A program made the position numbers and the translations under genes. Positions 1,983 through 49,094 of a DNA stretch of 64,000 bases are shown here, piece by piece. The stretch comes from Acetobacteraceae bacterium. GTDB taxonomy: Bacteria; Pseudomonadota; Alphaproteobacteria; Acetobacterales; Acetobacteraceae. Each line of letters opens with the position of its first letter. Positions within the stretch are counted from its first letter, which is position 1. A model generated the notes under the pieces. It saw nothing but the letters and a program-made list of their open reading frames with translations, was not told the DNA's origin and searched no databases. The stretch covers positions 17,744 through 81,743 of the forward strand of contig JBBARC010000007.1 in assembly GCA_040400005.1 (NCBI GenBank), given 5' to 3'.

Positions 1983-2963
1983 ATGGCAGGTTGGTTTCGC
2001 AATTTATTTCCCAAAAAACCAGCGACGCCCGCGCCAATCGCGGCCCCGCGGCCCCGGCCCGCGGCGTTCGAATCGCTGTTCGGCGTGGCTTTGGCCGCCC
2101 CCGCAACCGCGCTCGCCACCCCGGCACTGGCGCTTGCGGTGGATGGGATAGCGGCCAAAGAAACCATCATGATCGCCGGCAATTGCTGTGCCGATAGCCT
2201 GGTTCAAATGTTTCAAACCGATGACCGCCTGCGTGCCCAGTACCGTTTCATCCGGCTAGGCAGTGTGGAAGATCGCCGCCTAACCGACGCCCAAAAAGCC
2301 GAAATTTGCGCGGCGCGCCGGATCGTTATTCAAGATGTCGGCTCCATCGAGGCCAAAGCGATCGAAGCCTGCGTGCCAGATCAGTGCGAAATTATCCGCT
2401 TTCCGCAGCTCAATCTGCGCGCCCTATGGCCGTGGAACTGGCGCATGCTGCCGCCGGCACAAGGCGATACGCTCCTGCCACAAGCACGATTTGTATACTG
2501 CGACACGGCTTTGGAAAGCTTGCGCAAAACCATCAGCGATAAAACCGAATTGCTCGCGGCCTACCGCCAGACACAGCCAACCATGATGCAGACATTTCTA
2601 AAATTGCACGCATTCGATCAGCACCAGTTGCTCGAATACGATGAGATTTACGGCATGACGATTGGCGCTAGGATTTTGGCGGCGGTCCCCGAACGGCAAA
2701 TATTTTATAACCCAAGCCACCCGCACATGATTATTTACCAATGGCTGGGGGAGCATATTTGGGCCAAGCTTAACCTGCCTGGCACCTGCCCGGTGTTCGC
2801 CGGCGGCGATACCTGGCGCCAACACAGCCTGCCGGTGCATCCGGCCGTTGCGGCCCATTTTGGCCTAGCTTGGGCCAACGATGCGACTGTTTACACTAAC
2901 AAGGTGGCGGGTGCAGTAACCTGGGAAGACTACACGCGGGCCTACATCGCCGCCATGGACTAG
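1983..2963 (+). CDS. Hypothetical protein, possibly WcbI-like (polysaccharide-biosynthesis-associated); the start is uncertain (alternative ATG at 2169)
   Basis: 326-aa ORF with normal composition. The N-terminal IAGNCC string resembles the GNCQ start of the WcbI family as I remember it, but the assignment is weak. Confidence 0.55.
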   Translation: MAGWFRNLFPKKPATPAPIAAPRPRPAAFESLFGVALAAPATALATPALALAVDGIAAKETIMIAGNCCADSLVQMFQTDDRLRAQYRFIRLGSVEDRRLTDAQKAEICAARRIVIQDVGSIEAKAIEACVPDQCEIIRFPQLNLRALWPWNWRMLPPAQGDTLLPQARFVYCDTALESLRKTISDKTELLAAYRQTQPTMMQTFLKLHAFDQHQLLEYDEIYGMTIGARILAAVPERQIFYNPSHPHMIIYQWLGEHIWAKLNLPGTCPVFAGGDTWRQHSLPVHPAVAAHFGLAWANDATVYTNKVAGAVTWEDYTRAYIAAMD

Positions 2964-3474
2964 CCGATCAGGCGCATGCCGCCATTATGCCAGCGGCAAA
3001 CATCGAGCATAAGCCTGCGGTTTTACCATTTGATCACCCGTAAAATATCTGCCCGCTCATCGGTCCACAGCACCGGGCCAGGGGCCGGCACATCCCAGCC
3101 ATCGGCGGCAACGGCGCGGTCGCCGAAACCGCCAGAAACGGCGGGCCGATGGTTAGCGTCAGCCTGATCAGTAACCACAATGCCGGCGATCCGCTGGTTG
3201 GCGGGGCGGCCGTGCCAATGGCCAGCGGCAACAGCAAAAACAAATCCCAACACGCAGCATTCAGAAAAACTTGCGTGCGCGACCGCAAGCGATGGGCCGG
3301 TTGAATTTGCGCGTGCCCGGCCGCCCGGCCGCTTGGCGCCCAGTACACACCGTGTTTGGTTTTTTGCCGCGATAAGTAGTTTCCGTGGCTTGGGCGGCAT
3401 GCCGAGTATCGTTAGCTTGCCTCACCCCAACGTCGTTTGCCAATCGCTGCGAGGCCGACACAACAAAGACGCGA

Positions 3475-4872
3475 ATGCCCCATGGAGATGCACCTTTGCA
3501 AATAAAGGCTACAACCGCCGGCCTTGCCCCGACCAATGTGGCCCCGATCAGCCTGGCCCTGATCAGCCTGGCCCTGATCAGCCTGGCCCTGATCAGCCTG
3601 GGCGCTTGCGGAGATCAGGCAAAACTTACGCAATCATCGGGCTACGGTGCCGCACCCGAGCTGCCAGCGCCGCCCCCGACCCTAATCCCCACGCTTAACA
3701 TAGCACCGGCGGTGCGCTGGCGCGAAGGTGGCACCCCGACAGTCGCCCAGGTGGCGGCTGGCGATTTGCAGGTAACCCGGTTTGCCGAAAACCTTGATCA
3801 TCCGCGCTGGCTTTACGTGCTGCCTAATGGCGACGTGCTGGTGGCGGAATCTAACGCACCGCCCAAACCCGAAGACAGCAAAGGCATCCGCGGTTGGGTG
3901 CAACACCTGGCCATGCGGGCGGCAGGCGCGGTAACCGAAAGTGCTAACCGCATCACCTTATTACGATCAACCCGCCACAATGGCATCGCGGACCTGCGCA
4001 TGGTGTTTTTAAGCGGCCTGCATTCCCCGATCGGCATGGCGCTGGTTGGGCGCGATTTTTATGTCGCCGATAGTAACGCACTGCTGCGGTTTACCTACGC
4101 CGCCGGCGCCACCGCCATTCGCACGCCAGCGACAAAACTGCTCGATCTGCCGGCAGGCCCGATCAATCACCACTGGACCAAAAACGTCATCGCCAGCGCC
4201 GATGGCAGCCGCCTTTACGTTACCATCGGGTCCAACAGCAATGTTTTGGAAAATGGCGTGGCAGCCGAAGCGGGCCGCGCCGATATCTGGCAGATAAACC
4301 CCGCCGACGGTACCCACCGGGTGTTTGCCGCCGGCTTGCGCAATCCCAACGGCATGGGGTGGTCGTCCACCGGCAAGCTATGGGTGGCGGTGAACGAACG
4401 CGACGAGATCGGCAGCGATCTGGTGCCCGATTACATGACGGCCGTGGTGGATGGCGGTTTTTACGGCTGGCCCTATTCGTATTACGGCCAGCATGTCGAT
4501 GACCGTGCCAAACCGCCGCGGCCGGATCTGGTGGCGGCGGCCATACCGCCGGATTATGCACTGGGCGCACATACTGCCTCACTCGGCCTGGCGTTTCATA
4601 CTGGCCCAGGTCTTACCGCCGCCTTTGCCGAAGGCGCGTTTATTGGTCAGCACGGATCCTGGAACCGTAACCCATTGAGCGGGTACAAGGTTATTTTTGT
4701 GCCGTTCCGAAATGGTGCCCCAAGTGGCGCGCCGGTTGATATCCTTACCGGCTTTCTTGACCCCTACGGCCGCGCCCAAGGCCGCCCGGTAGGCCTTGCG
4801 ATCGATCCGCAAGGCGCTTTGCTGGTGGCCGATGATGTTGGCAACATGGTGTGGCGGGTCAGCGCGCGGTGA
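3475..4872 (+). CDS. PQQ-dependent sugar (sorbosone-type) dehydrogenase, lipoprotein
   Basis: [29 protein letters not shown] and GSWNR strings fit the soluble PQQ sugar dehydrogenase beta-propeller family. Signal peptide ends in the lipobox LGAC. The ATG at 3475 was chosen; an in-frame GTG at 3538 is also possible. Confidence 0.85.
3541..3605 (+). repeat. 15-bp tandem repeat GATCAGCCTGGCCCT, about 4 copies, in frame (ISLAL)n within a signal peptide
   Basis: Direct reading: units at 3546-3560, 3561-3575 and 3576-3590 are identical; 3591-3605 is partial. Confidence 0.95.
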
Positions 4873-11754: not shown

Positions 11755-11798
11755 GAAGCGCTTATATCGGCATGCACGGCAAGAAGAAAAGGGCAGGG

Positions 11799-11872
11799 AG
11801 AAGAACCTTCTTTTTCTCGAAGAAAAAGAAGCAAAAAGACTTTTATAAGTTTGGGGCGGATTGTGTTCGGGC
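11799..11872. repeat. AT-rich palindromic repeat family, solo arm plus partial core (copy E1)
   Basis: AGAAGAACCTTCTTTTTCTCGAAGAAAAAGAAGCAAAAAGACTTTTATAAG followed by TTTGGGGCGGATTGTGTTCGGG. Confidence 0.9.
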
Positions 11873-13843: not shown

Positions 13844-13967
13844 GGGAACCAGTGAAGCACCAAACCCGCGACTCGGAAACAGGTATTTTGCGTGTCAACC
13901 GGGGTTAGCCCACTAAATGTTGTGGATAACCTGCGTGGGGGCGGTGAAAGCGGGTGAATGCAAAAAA

Positions 13968-14112
13968 GTAAGAATTTTCTTTTTTCTGAAGAAAAAAGAA
14001 ACAAAAAAGACTTTATTGATGTTTTGTTCGGAAGACGCGGTTGCAGGGTTGCCCCAGGCCCGGCGTATAAAAGTCTTTTTGCTTCTTTTTCTTCAGAAAA
14101 AAAGTTTCTAAC
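13968..14112. repeat. AT-rich palindromic repeat family, complete copy (E2): arm, GC-rich core, inverted arm
   Basis: GTAAGAATTTTCTTTTTTCTGAAGAAAAAAGAAACAAAAAAGACTTTATT ... core GTTCGGAAGACGCGGTTGCAGGGTTGCCCCAGGCCC ... TATAAAAGTCTTTTTGCTTCTTTTTCTTCAGAAAAAAAGTTTCTAAC. Confidence 0.95.
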
Positions 14113-14197
14113 TTTCAGCCGATTGCCCGGTTAAAAGCGCCGCAGATTGCCCACGCTTCACTGGACCATCGCCCGCGTTCTGCCTATATGCCAAACC

Positions 14198-21679: not shown

Positions 21680-21807
21680 ACCCCTCCCCTTTTGGCACCA
21701 CGAACGAGCACCTTGCAAAAATGCTAGCTGCTACGGTGCCGGGCTGCAAGTCAGAATGGAATCAGTTTCAGGTTTCGGTTTGGGCTAGCTCCGTCTATGA
21801 TCATGCT

Positions 21808-22527
21808 ATGCTCGACGACCATCCAACACTAACGTACAACGCCCCCGGAAATATGGCTCCCACCCCGACCCCCGCCCCCGCCCCCGCCTCTGGTCCCACC
21901 TTGGGCCACACGCTCGCCAGCCGCGCCATGCCGCGCCAGCGCCGCGCTATCGAACGGCGCCAGGCGATTCTCGATGCCACCCTCGCCATCCTGGCAACCG
22001 ATGGGCTGGCAGCGATCTCAACCTCGGTCATCGCTGCCCGCGCCGGCGTGCCGGTGGCCTCGGTTTATGCCTATTTTCCCAATAAATTCGCCATTGTCGC
22101 CGAACTCGCCCGGCAGACTTTTGCCCAAGGCGACGCAGCGCTGGACCATATTCTCGGCCAGGCCGGCACCGGCGTAAAACTTTCCGCCATTATCGACCAG
22201 GCCATAGCCGCCGTGCTCAACGGCTACCGAGAAGTGCCCGGCCGCCGCCATTTGTTCAGCGCCATCCGCAACAACGAACTGCTCGACGCCGTGCAGGTCG
22301 AATCGGAAACCCGCATGATCGCCGTCACCACCAGCATCATCACCCGCCTGCGCCCCGATGCCCCCGCCCGCCACATCGCCGCCATCGCCGCCACCGCCGT
22401 GCGCGCCTTCACCGTGCTGCAGCACCACGCCGTCAGCTGCGACGACGATGCGCAGTTACCCCTGCTGGTTGCCGAATGGCGCCAACTGCTGCTGGCCTAT
22501 TTGCAGCCCTATTTGCCGGGGCTGTAG
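21808..22527 (+). CDS. TetR-family transcriptional regulator
   Basis: HTH string ILDATLAILATDGLAAISTSVIAARAGVPVASVYAYFPNK. Divergent from the beta-helix operon. Confidence 0.85.
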   Translation: MLDDHPTLTYNAPGNMAPTPTPAPAPASGPTLGHTLASRAMPRQRRAIERRQAILDATLAILATDGLAAISTSVIAARAGVPVASVYAYFPNKFAIVAELARQTFAQGDAALDHILGQAGTGVKLSAIIDQAIAAVLNGYREVPGRRHLFSAIRNNELLDAVQVESETRMIAVTTSIITRLRPDAPARHIAAIAATAVRAFTVLQHHAVSCDDDAQLPLLVAEWRQLLLAYLQPYLPGL

Positions 22528-22542
22528 GGGCCAGGGTAAGGC

Positions 22543-22662
22543 TAAGACTCTTTTTTTTCTGAAGAAAAAGGAGCAAAAAGACTTTTATTACGCTGGGACT
22601 GGGGCTGCGATGCCACCGCGAATCCCGGCCCGACATATAAAAAGTCTTTTGCTTCTTTTCTT
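22543..22662. repeat. AT-rich palindromic repeat family, copy E3 (left arm, core in inverted orientation, proximal part of right arm), interrupted by a MITE
   Basis: TAAGACTCTTTTTTTTCTGAAGAAAAAGGAGCAAAAAGACTTTTATTA ... core ... TATAAAAAGTCTTTTGCTTCTTTTCTT. Confidence 0.9.
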
Positions 22663-22852
22663 GTAACTGCCCAGGTAGGGGTGAGAACGCTAACTGCCTC
22701 AAAAAACTCAACTCTCGGCGCGCAGGCCATTACGTTACCGACGCAAACTGTCCCTTTTTCGGCAGTTTGCGTATCGAAACCAGACCTAAACCCGAAGTCG
22801 CCATAAATGTTTTCAATGGGTTGTGTAGCTTCGACCCTACCTGGGCAGTTAC
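22663..22852. mobile_element. 190-bp MITE with perfect 18-bp terminal inverted repeats and an 8-bp target-site duplication
   Basis: Left end GTAACTGCCCAGGTAGGG (22663-22680). Right end CCCTACCTGGGCAGTTAC (22835-22852). Flanked by CTTTTCTT at 22655-22662 and 22853-22860. Removing the insert plus one TSD restores the intact repeat arm seen at 28351-28387. Confidence 0.85.
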
Positions 22853-22882
22853 CTTTTCTTCAGAAAAGAAGGGTCTTGCCGT
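22853..22882. repeat. Distal remainder of the right arm of repeat copy E3
   Basis: CTTTTCTTCAGAAAAGAAGGGTCTTGCC matches the ends of other arms. Confidence 0.85.
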
Positions 22883-22946
22883 TACCTTGCCTAGCCCGGC
22901 GTTTTGCCCATACCATCACGGTGTTTTCCTGGGAGTAAACACGGCC

Positions 22947-24374
22947 ATGCAGGTTGAGATGCTGATTGGCGATCGTTTCGTCGCGGGTGAGGGGGAGGTT
23001 GAGCGGATTGTCGACCCCCGCACGGGGGCTGCGGTGATTGATTTACCGCAAGCATCGGCGGCGCAGTTGGATCAGGCGGTGGTGGCGGCGCGGGCGGCGT
23101 TTGAAACTTTTGGCCGTGCCCCGCCGGTGGAGCGGGCCGGTTATCTGCTGAAGCTGGCCGATGCGGTGGAGGCAAATGCGGAGAGTTTAGCGGCGCTGGA
23201 GCACGCCAATACGGGTAAGCCACTGCATGCGGTGTTGCGTGATGAAATTCCCGCCATTGCTGATGTGTTCCGCTTTTTTGCCGGTGCTACGCGCACTATG
23301 CCGGGCTTGGCGGCCGGAGAATACATGGCCGGCTACACCAGCATGTTGCGGCGCGACCCGGTGGGAGTAGTGGGATCGATCGCGCCATGGAATTACCCGT
23401 TGATGATGGCGGCGTGGAAGATTGGCCCGGCGTTGGCGGGTGGCAATACGGTGGTGATTAAGCCATCGGAAAATACGCCGCTGAGTTTGCTAGCTTTGGG
23501 GCCATTGCTTGCTGAAATTTTGCCGCCTGGGGTTGTGAACATTGTGCTTGGTCGCGGTGCGGTGGTGGGGCAGGGCATGATTGATCATGCTGGAATAGAT
23601 ATGATATCGCTGACTGGCGATATTGGTACTGGACGAAAAGTGATTGCCGCTGCGGCAAAATCGATTAAGCGCACGCATTTGGAACTGGGTGGCAAGGCGC
23701 CGGTGATTGTGTTTGACGATGCTGATATAGACAGCGTTGTTGAAGGGTTGCGGGCGTTCAGTTTTTATAATGCTGGGCAGGATTGCACGGCGGCTTGCCG
23801 GGTTTATGCTGGCGCCAAGATTTATGACCGGCTGGTGGCTGATCTTGCCGGTGCTGCCAGTTCCATTGTGTTTGACCGCGCGGAAGATAGTGAAAACGAA
23901 ATTCCGCCGTTGATTTCAGCGCGGCAACGCGATCGGGTTAGCGGTTTTGTTGATCGTGCGGCGGCAGAAAAACACATTGAGGTTGTTGCTGGCGGGAAGG
24001 CGGGTGTTGGTGGTGGGTTTTTCTATGAGCCGACTGTGATTGCGGGTGCCCGCCAGGCCGATGAGATTGTGCAGCGGGAAGTGTTTGGCCCGGTTGTATC
24101 GGTTACCCGGTTTGATGATGTCGATCAGGCGATAGGCTGGGCGAACCAATCGGAATATGGGCTTGCATCATCTGTATGGTCGGGCAGTGTTGGGCGCGCG
24201 ATGGAGGCGGCATCGCGTTTGCGTTACGGCTGCACCTGGGTGAACTGCCATTTTATGCTGGTGAGTGAAATGCCGCATGGTGGGCTGAAAAGCTCTGGCT
24301 ACGGTAAGGATCTTTCTATGTTGTCGGTGGAGGATTATACGGTGGCCCGCCACGTTATGGTTAAACTCGGGTGA
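22947..24374 (+). CDS. patD: NAD-dependent aldehyde dehydrogenase, gamma-aminobutyraldehyde dehydrogenase-like
   Basis: About 475 aa from the ATG at 22947. ALDH motifs ELGGKAP and GQDCTAACR. Adjacent to a YdcSTUV-like transporter, as in E. coli ydcSTUV-patD. Confidence 0.8.
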
Positions 24375-27428: not shown

Positions 27429-28246
27429 GCCGCGCCATCACAACCGCCCGGCCGGGTAAAGCGATGGCGACCGCTGCCCTTACCATTGCGGCTGGTGCTG
27501 TGTTGCTGTTCCTGGTTATACCCATCGCCATCATCCTGGCGTACGCGTTCTCCGCCTCTCCCGTGCAAAGCTGGCCAATTCCCGCCTTCACGCTGCACTG
27601 GTTCACCGATACTTTCGCCGATGAAGAGATCCGTGCAGCATTCGTTCTATCAGTACAGGTCGCTGCCCTTTCCACTGTGATCTCGCTCGTGCTTGGCACA
27701 CTGGCCGCTTTCGCTGTCAGCCGGATGCAATCCGCCGCCCGTGAGGCGGTTTCCTTCGTGCTTATTCTGCCCATTGCGTTGCCAGGTATCCTCACCGGTA
27801 TGGCGCTAAACGCTTATTTTGTGGCGATCAACATGCCACTAAATTTCACCACAATTGTCATTGGCCACGCCACTTTCTGCATCGTTATTGTTTACAACAA
27901 TGTCCTTGCCCGGTTGCGCCGCCTGCCCCGCAGCCTTGCCGAAGCCTCCGCCGATCTAGGGGCCAGCCCGGCCATGACTTTTCGCCGCGTATTGCTGCCC
28001 ATGCTTGCCAGTGCCATCGGCGCCGGCGGGCTGCTGGCCTTCGCACTCTCGTTTGATGAAGTCATTGTCACCACCTTTACCGCCGGCGTGCAAACCACAC
28101 TACCCCTATGGATCCTCGGCGCCATTCGCCTCGGGCAACGGCTGCCAGAAGTGAATGTGGTGGTTTTCTGCGTTATTGTTATGACGCTTATTCCCGTATT
28201 TCTGGCGCAGCGGCTTATGGGAGATTCGGGGAGTTTGCATAAATAG
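27425..28246 (+). CDS. ABC transporter permease (PotC/YdcV-like)
   Basis: Multi-TM protein with the EAA loop LAEASADLGASPAMTFRRVLLPM. ATGA overlap with the upstream permease. Confidence 0.85.
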   Translation: MSRAITTARPGKAMATAALTIAAGAVLLFLVIPIAIILAYAFSASPVQSWPIPAFTLHWFTDTFADEEIRAAFVLSVQVAALSTVISLVLGTLAAFAVSRMQSAAREAVSFVLILPIALPGILTGMALNAYFVAINMPLNFTTIVIGHATFCIVIVYNNVLARLRRLPRSLAEASADLGASPAMTFRRVLLPMLASAIGAGGLLAFALSFDEVIVTTFTAGVQTTLPLWILGAIRLGQRLPEVNVVVFCVIVMTLIPVFLAQRLMGDSGSLHK

Positions 28247-28250
28247 AAGC

Positions 28251-28387
28251 AGGAACTTTCTTTTTCTGAAGAAAAAGAAACAAAAAAACTTTTACTAATT
28301 GGGTTCGGAATTCGCGGTGGCAGGGAAGCCCCAGGCCCAGCATAATAAAAGTCTTTTGCTTCTTTTCTTCAGAAAAGAAGGTTCTTC
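28251..28387. repeat. AT-rich palindromic repeat family, complete copy (E4)
   Basis: AGGAACTTTCTTTTTCTGAAGAAAAAGAAACAAAAAAACTTTTACTAA ... GGTTCGGAATTCGCGGTGGCAGGGAAGCCCCAGGCCC ... ATAAAAGTCTTTTGCTTCTTTTCTTCAGAAAAGAAGGTTCTTC. Confidence 0.95.
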
Positions 28388-28400
28388 ACCTTACCTTTTT

Positions 28401-42444: not shown

Positions 42445-43674
42445 ATGAGGACAGTACCCGTGCATCCTTTCTACGATCACTGCCGCGCAACACTGGCTGA
42501 CATCCACACCCAAGGGCGCTATCGGCGTTTCTCGCCGCTGGCCAAGCAGGCCGGCCGCTACCCGCGCTACCGCATGGACCAGGACGGTCTTTCGCGCGAA
42601 GTGATCGTCTGGTCATCTAACGACTACCTCGGAATGGGCACCGATCCCGTGCTGATTGAAGCAGCCGTAGAAGCCGCGCAAAAATACGGCACCGGCGCCG
42701 GCGGCACCCGCAACATAGCCGGATCATCCCCGCTGCACCGCGCGCTGGAAGCGGAATTGGCCAGCCTGCACGGCAAGGAAGCGGCGCTGTTGTTCGTGTC
42801 CGGCTACGTTTCCAACCAGGCCAGCCTGCAAACCATCCTGCAAAGCTTCCCCAACTGGCAGGTGTTTTCGGATGCCAAAAACCACGCCAGTATGATCGCC
42901 GGCATTAAATCGGCCCGCCACGCCACCTGCCATGTATTCGCCCATAACGACATGGACGATCTGCGCGCGCGCTTGGCCGCCGCCCCCAAAGACGCGCCCA
43001 AAATGATTGCCTTCGAAAGCGTCTATTCGATGGACGCCGATATCGCGCCGATCGAGGAGATTGTGGCACTGGCGGAAGAATTCGGGGCGCTGACCTATTT
43101 GGATGAAGTCCACGCCGTTGGCATGTACGGCCCATCGGGTGCCGGCGTCGCTGAACGCGAAGGCCTGGCCCACCGCATCGACATCATTGAAGGCACGCTG
43201 GCCAAAGCTTTCGGCTGCCTGGGTGGTTACATCACCGGATCGGCCGAGCTGGTTGATTTTGTGCGCTCCACCGCATCAGGCTTTATCTTTACCACATCCT
43301 TGCCGCCAACCGTGGTGGCGCCGGCGCTGGCCAGTGTGCGCCACGTGCGCCGCGACCACACCCGCCGCGCCGCCCTGTTTGCCCGCGCTGAAACCCTAAA
43401 GGCAAAACTCGATCGTGCCGGCCTGCCACGCCTGCCATCGGTTAGCCACATCGTGCCCGTGCACATTGGCGATGCAGCGCTGTGCAGCGATGTCAGCCGC
43501 CGCCTGCTGGACGATTTCGGCCATTACGCAACCCCGATTAATTACCCAACGGTTCCCCGCGGCACCGAACGCCTGCGCCTGACGCCGGGGCCGTTTCATA
43601 CCGATTCCATGATGGATAATTTGGTTGAGAGCCTGACTAAGATTTTGCGGCCAGCTAAGGCTGTGGCGGCTTAA
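42445..43674 (+). CDS. hemA: 5-aminolevulinate synthase
   Basis: GRYRRFSPL...[11 protein letters not shown] and a PLP-enzyme body of about 409 aa from the ATG at 42445. Confidence 0.9.
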
Positions 43675-43678
43675 TAAA

Positions 43679-43797
43679 AGGGTCTTCTTTTCTGAAGAAA
43701 AGAAGCAAAAGACTTTTATCATGTGGGGACGGGGGGACAGCTCGCCGGCGGGTGCTGGGATGCCTGCTTAAGAAAGTCTTTTTGCTTCGTTTTCTCC
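43679..43797. repeat. AT-rich palindromic repeat family, copy E5 (left arm and core; right arm decayed)
   Basis: AGGGTCTTCTTTTCTGAAGAAAAGAAGCAAAAGACTTTTATCA ... core ... TTAAGAAAGTCTTTTTGCTTCGTTTTCTCC. Confidence 0.85.
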
Positions 43798-45388: not shown

Positions 45389-45422
45389 CGTTAAAGCAGA
45401 AGTTTTAGAAACGTTCTTTACC

Positions 45423-45476
45423 ATAAAACCAAAAGTTCTTTTGTTTCTTTTTCTTCAGAAATAGAAAATTCTGACC
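45423..45476. repeat. AT-rich palindromic repeat family, solo arm (E6)
   Basis: ATAAAACCAAAAGTTCTTTTGTTTCTTTTTCTTCAGAAATAGAAAATTCTGACC. Confidence 0.85.
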
Positions 45477-45481
45477 TTCCC

Positions 45482-47692: not shown

Positions 47693-47870
47693 GGTGAGGT
47701 GGTGCTTTCCCGCGTGTGACGACGACATCCCCGTCGTTATGCGGCGATGCTGACCACAGCCTGACGGGGATAGCGGGATCGCTAAAATGTGAAGTACTCT
47801 TGTGCACGAGCGCTTTTCCCCCGCCCCACCCGGCGCGCTGGCAGACGGTAGTGCCTCTTCGCTGCCATCA

Positions 47871-47920
47871 TATCAGAAGTCTTTTTGTTTCTTTTTCTTC
47901 AGAAAAGAAAATTCTTACTT
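47871..47920. repeat. AT-rich palindromic repeat family, solo arm (E7), same orientation as E6
   Basis: TATCAGAAGTCTTTTTGTTTCTTTTTCTTCAGAAAAGAAAATTCTTACTT; abuts the cca stop codon. Confidence 0.85.
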
Positions 47921-49094
47921 ACCCCGTGCGCTGCAAAATATGAGCCAAATACGCTCGGCAGCCGTGCGCATCGGCGGTACAGCCTGCCGCCAGCCACCAG
48001 GCACGCACTTGCGCCAGTACTGCCCCAATGGCGGGACCAGGCGCGGCGCCAAGGGCGAGGGCATCGCGGCCGGCGAGCGGAAAAATCGGGGTTTTGGTGG
48101 CGGCGATGCGGGTGGCCAGGGCCACGCTTGTGGTAGCATCGGCAGCGGCGAGCCAAGCGCTGCCGATAACGATATCTTTGGTAAAGCCTGCCAGAAGGCG
48201 GCGCAGGTCGGCATCTGACATGCCGGGTGTTGGCGTGGGGGTTGTGCGCAGGGCGTGCAGCCGGTCGGCCTCAGCACGGGAGAATTTTAGGCGTTCGGCA
48301 AGGTTTGTATCGTTGCCGGTAAACAGGGCTGCCAGGCGCAGGATCGGATCAGCCGGGGCGGGTTTGGCGAGCAGATCGGCAAGGGTTTGCCGGCTGTAGG
48401 CTTGCGGCAGCAGGGTATCGAGCACGCCCAGGCGTTGCATCAGCGTGATGGCAGCCAGCGGGGATTGGCTCGCCAGCAGGGCGCGCAGTTCCGACCAGAC
48501 TCGTTCCACCGACAGGGTATTCAGTGTGGCGGCGGCGCTGGTGATGGCGGCTGTTGTGTCGGCGGTGGGCGGCGTTGCGCCAAACCGCGCGTAAAAGCGG
48601 AAAAAACGAAGGATACGCAGAGCATCTTCGGCAATGCGCAAGCTGGGGTCGCCAACAAAACGCAGGATACCGGCCTGCAAATCGGCGATGCCGCCAAAAT
48701 AATCGTGCACGGTGCCGTCCGGCGTTGCCGACATGGCGTTGATGGTGAAATCGCGGCGGGCGGCATCTTCGCGCCAGTCATCTGTCCACGCCACCACGGC
48801 GTGGCGGCCATCGGTCAGGATATCGCGGCGCAGGGTGGTGATTTCAAAACCATGGCCCTGGGCGATGGCGGTGATGGTGCCGTGCGCGAGGCCGGTGGGG
48901 ATGGCGCGCAGGCCGGCGGCCTGCAGGCGGGCGGTGACCGCATCGGGGGGATCGGGGGTGGCGAGGTCGATATCGCCTGGGGCAATACCAGCCAGGCAAT
49001 CGCGCACGGCGCCGCCGACCAGCCGGGCGTTGGGCAGGGCGGCCAGCACATCGGCAAGGCCTGGGGTTTGCGGGATCGTTATACGGGAGGTCAA
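47919..49094 (-). CDS. cca: CCA-adding tRNA nucleotidyltransferase / poly(A) polymerase family
   Basis: LVGGAVRDCLAG...DIDLAT...GLAHGTIT...TTLRRD motifs. Confidence 0.85.
   Translation of the reverse strand: MTSRITIPQTPGLADVLAALPNARLVGGAVRDCLAGIAPGDIDLATPDPPDAVTARLQAAGLRAIPTGLAHGTITAIAQGHGFEITTLRRDILTDGRHAVVAWTDDWREDAARRDFTINAMSATPDGTVHDYFGGIADLQAGILRFVGDPSLRIAEDALRILRFFRFYARFGATPPTADTTAAITSAAATLNTLSVERVWSELRALLASQSPLAAITLMQRLGVLDTLLPQAYSRQTLADLLAKPAPADPILRLAALFTGNDTNLAERLKFSRAEADRLHALRTTPTPTPGMSDADLRRLLAGFTKDIVIGSAWLAAADATTSVALATRIAATKTPIFPLAGRDALALGAAPGPAIGAVLAQVRAWWLAAGCTADAHGCRAYLAHILQRTG

Follow-up and report, generated by a model that had tools for sequence, protein, structure and literature searches.

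The question raised by this locus is what the 190-bp segment lying between a tetR gene and a patD-like gene in an Acetobacteraceae contig represents, how it came to be there, and whether its position inside an AT-rich palindromic repeat is a matter of chance. The DNA analyzed, called the window below, is the whole stretch of 64,000 nucleotides (64 kb). An initial annotation made from the sequence had described the segment as a miniature inverted-repeat element (MITE) that had transposed, probably recently, and had suggested a link with the IS66 family. According to the analysis reported here, the segment is very probably a non-autonomous miniature element of the IS66 family with ends of the single-gene (ISBst12-group) type, which was inserted at the center of the loop of an AT-rich arm. 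Taken as an event, it is a real but ordinary insertion between two genes; the most interesting lead, which goes beyond the initial annotation, is a hot spot for such insertions in the loop of an AT-rich palindrome. The coordinates of the features are collected in Table 1.

Table 1. The 190-bp element, its target repeat, and the flanking genes (positions in the window).
Feature	Position	Strand	Evidence
TetR-family regulator gene	21721–22527	+	Pfam TetR_N, TetR_C_15
Host AT-rich double-arm palindromic repeat (left arm, GC-rich spacer, right arm split by the insertion)	22547–22875		alignment to other copies
Left target-site duplication copy, CTTTTCTT	22655–22662		identical to 22853–22860
Left terminal inverted repeat, GTAACTGCCCAGGTAGGG	22663–22680	+	sequence read-out, repeat finder (pair I2)
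Non-coding interior, 154 bp	22681–22834
Internal hairpin, 10-bp stems ACGCAAACTG / CAGTTTGCGT, 12-nt loop	22741–22772		repeat finder (I12)
Right terminal inverted repeat, CCCTACCTGGGCAGTTAC	22835–22852	−	exact reverse complement of the left repeat
Right target-site duplication copy, CTTTTCTT	22853–22860		abuts the right terminal inverted repeat
Aminobutyraldehyde dehydrogenase (PatD-like) gene	22947–24374	+	Aldedh; NCBIfam NF010000, 755 bits vs. cut-off 615
Uninterrupted paralogous copy of the AT-rich repeat (internal empty-site control)	28250–28385		35-nt identity to the rebuilt target

Anatomy of the element and evidence for its insertion

The anatomy can be read directly from the sequence. 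Perfect 18-bp terminal inverted repeats (TIRs) located 154 nt apart define an element of 190 bp, and the read-out and the repeat finder agree with the initial annotation on the TIRs, the 8-bp duplication, the size of the insert, and the internal hairpin with its 10-bp stem arms (22741–22750 and 22763–22772). When up to three mismatches are allowed, the 18-mer is found at just two places in the 64-kb window, which are the two TIRs, against a shuffle expectation of 0.03. By simple arithmetic, a perfect 18-nt inverted pair less than 300 nt apart is expected about 3e-4 times per 64 kb, a figure in which the flanking 8-bp repeat is not yet counted.

The predicted fold-back of the element is strong (z = −5.5), and the stem of the internal hairpin is retained in the centroid fold. 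The hairpin is not followed by a T-run on either strand, and the terminator scan reports no terminator there. Its stems contain AAACTG(T/C)C motifs resembling the core of the TIR. Three extra copies of this core can be noted in the interior, namely CTAACTGCC (22691–22698), CAAACTGTCC (22745–22753), and, in reverse orientation, CAAACTGCCG (22759–22770), with AACTGYC cores at 22693, 22747, and, reversed, 22761; two of the three make up the internal hairpin. Such sub-terminal copies are absent from the full-length relatives and from the other miniature elements described below. They could serve as additional transposase-binding sites or be the remains of an older nested pair of ends.

The element has no evident coding capacity. 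The longest ORF inside it is 41 aa, and the interior holds only short ORFs. Two frames are open through the whole element; both of them were used as protein queries in order to catch spurious gene calls on other copies, and no homologue was found among 5.8 billion predicted proteins. A tblastx search revealed no transposase remnant in the interior, and a tblastn search revealed no IS66-type transposase in the 64-kb window. The description of the insert as a non-autonomous element without an ORF, in a window without a transposase gene, is thus upheld.

If the insert is removed together with one copy of CTTTTCTT, the sequence AAAAGTCTTTTGCTTCTTTTCTTCAGAAAAGAAGG is restored, and 35 nt of it are identical to the uninterrupted arm at 28348–28382, which holds a single CTTTTCTT at 28362–28369. 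An orthologous empty site was also found. For the TetR protein of the window, one relative was found (79% identity), encoded by the metagenome contig L058 (ENA ERZ27280970 k141_314914), in which the gene order is the same as in the window: tetR, the aldehyde dehydrogenase gene, and then ABC transporter genes. At the site in question, the tetR–Aldedh spacer of L058 reads ...GTCTTTTGCTTCTTTTCTTCAGAAAAGAGGGGTCTTGCC...; it contains one CTTTTCTT, lacks the insert, and differs from the window by two mismatches in the 43 nt around the insertion site. Relative to this locus, the window has exactly 190 bp and the 8-bp duplication in excess, which is the signature of DDE-type transposition. The orthologous site is a stronger control than the paralogous arm. 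The earlier claim of true transposition, which had been based on the paralogous arm and had called for an inspection of the same locus in relatives, is borne out by both sites, as the repeat in L058 is uninterrupted and carries a single CTTTTCTT. The perfect ends and the perfect duplication are the sole pointers to a recent insertion; the empty ortholog is distant.

There is one more difference between the two spacers. The left arm of the interrupted repeat, about 63 nt in length (22528–22590, from GGGCCAGGGTAAGG to TTTTATTAC), begins directly after the tetR stop codon and is missing from the orthologous spacer of L058 (compared at 1220–1225), where there are the spacer and the right arm only. 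No duplication is visible at the borders of this left arm.

Both junctions of the locus are independently present in Logan contigs of the run SRR11430617. Three contigs of this run carry proteins of the window (L057, L060, and L065), and the neighboring ABC gene was used to fetch the right-hand one, as no record matches the exact product of the patD-like ORF that starts at 22947. The left contig, L057, ends at window position 22669, and thus includes 24 nt of the flank and 7 nt of the left TIR, while the right contig, L060, starts at window position 22843, so that it includes the last 10 nt of the right TIR. The Logan assembly uses k = 31. At this k, the breaks imply two shared 30-mers, one made up of 23 nt of the arm and 7 nt of the TIR and the other of 10 nt of the TIR and 20 nt of the arm. 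The stretches that the second arm copy in the window (28348–28382) has in common with the interrupted arm are exactly 23 nt on one side and 20 nt on the other. Breaks at both junctions are therefore expected if an insertion with these ends also occupies the same position of another such arm in the sample. This pattern is suggestive of a second occupied arm with the same ends in the sample, and it leaves the interior of that insertion unspecified. The third contig, L065, ends at window position 28363, which implies a further paralog of the arm at 28348–28382, located outside the window and sharing at least 30 nt with it.

The interior is represented by one copy in the window, and a blastn search of 56 TIR-bearing loci found no other. 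No match to the interior was found in plasmids or in phages; a scan with exact 21-mers found none in metagenome contigs or viral contigs, and a TIR-N{140,170}-TIR scan of metagenome contigs gave no further copy of it. Bacterial MITEs are short non-autonomous elements with terminal inverted repeats (PMC3184786). The element of the window is like them in its small size of 190 bp, its perfect 18-bp inverted ends, its target duplication matched by empty sites without the duplication (the ortholog in L058 and the paralog at 28362–28369), the lack of a transposase gene, its zero coding capacity, its intergenic site, and its strong predicted fold-back. The usual description of bacterial MITEs also includes their multi-copy status, whereas the interior studied here is known from one copy in the collections searched.

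Ends of the ISBst12 type in the IS66 family

The exact 18-mer was searched for in one scan of representative genomes, which gave 56 loci. Clusters of loci were found in Bryobacterales, an Acetobacteraceae MAG, a Rhodospirillales MAG, Nitrosovibrio, Rhodopila, the cyanobacterium Fischerella, and a gammaproteobacterium. Many of the loci are 80–200 bp from contig ends, as expected of the ends of insertion sequences. About 17 matches are expected by chance in 596 Gb on two strands (arithmetic), and approximately eight lone matches (in Gordonia, Robiginitalea, Sulfolobaceae, Treponema, and others) were rejected as chance ones, IS66 coding sequence being absent nearby according to tblastn. A single exact match was also observed in a predicted viral contig (L064, 754–771; IMGVR_UViG_3300029383_000005).

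In long-read assemblies of Bryobacterales, the 18-mer and its slightly diverged inverted copy bound elements of 2025–2034 bp. Each of them contains one ORF of 499 aa with the Pfam domains DDE_Tnp_IS66 (PF03050, E 6.6e-39), zf-IS66, and DUF6444; the match of this ORF to the NCBIfam model transpos_IS66 (NF033517) reaches 280 bits at a cut-off of 180. Five of the copies have perfect 8-bp duplications: CCCCACCA, CTCCGCTC, CCGAAGAG, CTCGCTCT, and CGCTTGGG. The TIR of the window element is identical (18/18) to at least one end of these elements. IS66-type coding sequence adjoins the 18-mer in six lineages, as determined by tblastn, including Rhodopila, Acetobacteraceae, Nitrosovibrio, Fischerella, and a gammaproteobacterium.

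A cultured example was reached by protein search. The plasmid p192_1 of Bradyrhizobium sp. 192 (NZ_CP064691.1) carries an element of 1547 bp, which is annotated as encoding an "IS66 family transposase" (WP_247772623.1), has GTAACTGCCCAGGT at both ends, and is flanked by the duplication CCGAACCG. The first 14 nt of the window TIR are identical (14/14) to both of its ends. The DNA of the Acetobacteraceae left end gave no match in plasmids. In relatives from Octadecabacter and Geobacillus, the ends start with GTAACTCCCAAG and GTAACTATTCAG, respectively. The ends of the window element are thus those of elements encoding DDE_Tnp_IS66, and the IS66 link, which had been proposed from the initial GTAA of the ends and the 8-bp duplication, is substantiated: the 18-mer terminates IS66-family elements with 8-bp duplications.

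The placement within the family can be refined. Within the IS66 family, ISDge4 of Deinococcus geothermalis is a member of the ISBst12 group, with one transposase, a repeat of 8 bp, and the ends GTAACTGCTCAGCA and GTGACTACTCAGCA (PMC12898284). The end of the window element is identical to one ISDge4 end at 11 of 14 positions. The ends of the members of the ISBst12 group and of the Bradyrhizobium element start with GTAACTGC.CAG, as in the window element. An 8-bp duplication is shared by the window element, the five Bryobacterales copies, the Bradyrhizobium copy, and ISDge4. The relatives of 1547 bp and 2034 bp contain one long IS66-type ORF each and have no room for more genes, which corresponds to the definition of the group by a single transposase and the absence of the accessory tnpA/tnpB genes (PMC12898284). 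These comparisons narrow the family link down to the IS66 branch with a single gene, the ends being of the ISBst12 type.

The full-length relatives of the ISBst12 type are 1.5–2.0 kb in length and carry a transposase gene, whereas the window element is 190 bp in length and lacks one, and its interior is unrelated to their sub-terminal regions. No derivation of the interior from these regions was detected using blastn and tblastx: the similarity past the 18-mer does not exceed approximately 3 nt, with the exception of one 31-nt match of 90% identity in the locus L033. This weakens the reading of the element as a deletion derivative of a known relative; it does not weaken its mobilization by a transposase of that type.

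Two features of the full-length elements can be noted in passing. In the Bryobacterales element type of L007, an ORF of 465 aa without a Pfam match (2810–4207) lies between an end and the IS66-type transposase gene (950–2533); possible identities are a passenger gene and a second, unrecognized transposase. In the alphaproteobacterial full-length elements, a palindrome TTGACT(G/C)A...TGAGTCAAG is located just within the left end (L062, about 676–706; also L012, L014, and L001), directly upstream of the transposase start or overlapping it, and it may regulate the expression of the transposase.

Other miniature elements with the same ends were found as well. Those of Nitrosovibrio are 109 and 141 bp in length, and the 141-bp one is flanked by the 8-bp duplication GATATAAC. 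Those of the Acetobacteraceae MAG SMAG_U14882 are 199–218 bp in length (L036, 848–1046; L035, 3817–4030; L005, 175–392; L037, 476–685). The latter have the same 18-bp end, an 8-bp duplication, and the same AT-rich arm as a target in common with the window element. They differ from it in the interior, which is unrelated to that of the window element and consists of a complete AT-rich double-arm repeat, with an exact 28-mer that also occurs in two of the window's arms. Arm matches in the SMAG_U14882 loci fall about half inside such elements and half outside them. Since these miniatures themselves sit in arms of other such repeats, each of them carries its own preferred target. One more miniature (L026, 189–466) has 30-nt flanks that are perfect reverse complements of each other and not a direct duplication; this symmetry is probably a hairpin artifact near the end of a short-read contig.

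The AT-rich palindromic repeat as a target

The repeat that harbors the insertion is present in the window in several copies. Double-arm copies are located at 13953–14118, 22547–22875 (the interrupted one), and about 28239–28390, and single arms are located at 11787–11853, 43671–43735, 45398–45479, and 47865–47924. All copies are intergenic, and most of them lie just past stop codons. Each arm is about 40 nt in length and contains the palindrome CTTCTTTT(C/T)T..A(G/A)AAAAGAAG, with an AAAAG(A)CTTTT box after it. Double-arm copies fold into hairpins of about 130 nt with the GC-rich spacer between the arms (z from −4 to −9), and each uninterrupted arm also forms a small hairpin with the stem CTTCTTTTC/GAAAAGAAG and the loop TTCA. 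In the right arm, the element entered between the two bases at the center of the loop, and the duplication therefore comprises the last seven stem bases and one loop base. Similar repeats occur on plasmids of Pseudoroseomonas cervicalis between convergent genes (L059, 1498–1625), and together with the relatives of the TetR protein they place the window near Acetobacteraceae/Rhodospirillales.

The same position in the palindrome has been hit repeatedly, as is observed directly at the window locus, at L035 and L036, and in flanks known from one side. In L035 from the Acetobacteraceae MAG, a different miniature element with the same ends is inserted in the same arm sequence in mirror image, with the duplication CAGAAAAG, and the insertion in L036 is analogous. 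One-sided flanks from the Acetobacteraceae and Rhodospirillales MAGs end in ...TTCTTTTTTG or ...TTCTTTTTTGAAAAAAG, which are the two sides of the loop-center geometry, and the flanks in this geometry include those of full-length elements. The motif CTTTTYTB is found next to the end in 15 of the 27 alphaproteobacterial flanks and at 0.08% of background positions, a crude count for a motif that was defined post hoc and for copies that are not fully independent within one genome. At least six A+T among eight positions are found in 19 of the same 27 flanks, compared with 4% of the background. The Bryobacterales copies have GC-rich, unrelated duplications, and the target bias is absent from them, so the bias is specific either to a lineage or to a genome.

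Repeated palindromes are known targets of the IS3, IS110, IS4, IS256, and IS5 families, and the elements that target REP or BIME sequences are IS1397 and ISKpn1 (IS3), IS621, ISPpu9, ISPpu10, and ISPa11 (IS110), and ISRm22 (IS4) (PMC1525189). Like them, the elements with the ends described here enter a repeated extragenic palindrome at a constant position, as seen in Acetobacteraceae and Rhodospirillales. The target differs, however, from a classical REP, which is a GC-rich palindrome of 20–40 bp often associated with a RAYT: here, it is an AT-rich arm of about 22 bp in a palindrome of about 130 bp. In addition, the bias has the character of a hot spot and is not absolute, being absent from the Bryobacterales copies. 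IS66 is outside the five families listed in PMC1525189, and our search of the literature found no report of palindrome targeting by the IS66 family.

We tentatively propose that the single-gene IS66 elements of Acetobacteraceae and Rhodospirillales with GTAACTGCCCAGGTAGGG and their miniatures use the loop of the AT-rich repeat hairpin as a hot spot, and that in at least one genome a miniature has captured a complete repeat, so that each of its insertions plants two new target arms. This proposal is quite possible, and we rate it slightly below an even chance. We infer that the bias is caused by the transposase rather than by selection.

Origin of the element and its significance

If the segment is a miniature IS66-family element, its origin can be outlined as follows. 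A DDE transposase of the ISBst12-type group, encoded elsewhere in the genome, would have bound both of the identical 18-bp ends, cut the target DNA with a stagger of 8 bp, and joined the ends to it; repair of the stagger would have produced the duplication of CTTTTCTT. The target would have been the loop center of one hairpin arm in the AT-rich intergenic repeat between tetR and the patD-like gene. Mobilization in trans in this particular genome is thus presumed.

The main rival explanation is decay in place: a full-length IS66-family element would have been inserted at this site and then lost its interior, and the 190-bp form would never have moved as a miniature. Such a course of events agrees with the interior being known from one copy, and the non-coding regions of the relatives, approximately 66–450 nt on the left and 26–84 nt on the right, could, when joined by a single deletion, give about 154 nt. 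It is nevertheless unlikely. The interior resembles neither the sub-terminal regions nor the transposase of any relative; the breaks in the Logan contigs suggest more than one insertion with these ends, not necessarily with the same interior; and decay would have had little time, as the ends and the duplication are perfect.

Considerably less probable still is an assembly artifact, in which the TIR-bounded element is real and its 154-bp interior is derived from another copy or from a longer element that was collapsed. The breaks of the k = 31 Logan assembly at 7 nt and 10 nt into the ends confirm the junctions only, but the deposited contig (81,984 bp) runs through the element, single reads or read pairs could span its short interior, and miniatures of 109–218 bp with these ends exist in other genomes. 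The palindrome-rich nature of the surrounding DNA might also bring to mind a non-mobile palindrome that arose locally by chance or for structural reasons. This reading is effectively refuted by the IS66 ends and duplications shared with other elements and by the alignment with the ortholog: IS66-family elements of several phyla end in the identical 18-mer, exactly 190 bp and one CTTTTCTT are missing from the orthologous site, and the chance expectation is negligible. The preferred reading remains that of a miniature element of the IS66 family.

As regards the locus, the Pfam and NF010000 matches support the assignment of the flanking genes, and hence the earlier placement of the insert between the tetR stop codon and the patD start. 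The PatD-like gene is followed by ABC_tran, SBP, and two permease genes. Between the end of the element and the ATG of the PatD-like gene there are 94 bp, which are conserved with the ortholog in L058 and were left intact by the insertion. Consensus scans found no promoter-like or terminator-like site in the element. An RNA gene or a riboswitch was also considered and rejected: the Rfam search at gathering thresholds is empty across the window, and at E ≤ 1 it gives only chance-level hairpin matches, which fall on the neighboring AT-rich repeat and not on the element. The effect of the insertion on patD is presumably neutral or mild because the conserved 94 bp upstream are intact. A TTG-initiated ORF (22767–24374) starts within the element and continues in frame into the patD-like gene; the stretch from the element to the ATG at 22947 is free of stop codons, so that the gene may be over-extended by gene callers.

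The locus itself is of little importance, being an insertion in a spacer that did not touch the 94 conserved bp ahead of the patD-like gene. Its value lies in the very widely conserved 18-bp end sequence, which is tied here to a poorly studied single-gene branch of the IS66 family, in the miniature derivatives added to this branch, and in the testable indication that an AT-rich hairpin repeat is a preferred target. A preference of this kind would help to explain the nested insertions in spacer repeats and the breaks of short-read assemblies in Acetobacteraceae genomes. If the proposal is true, the hot spot would be the first reported case of REP-like targeting by IS66-family elements, and the two new target arms planted with each insertion could drive a self-nesting expansion of both repeats.
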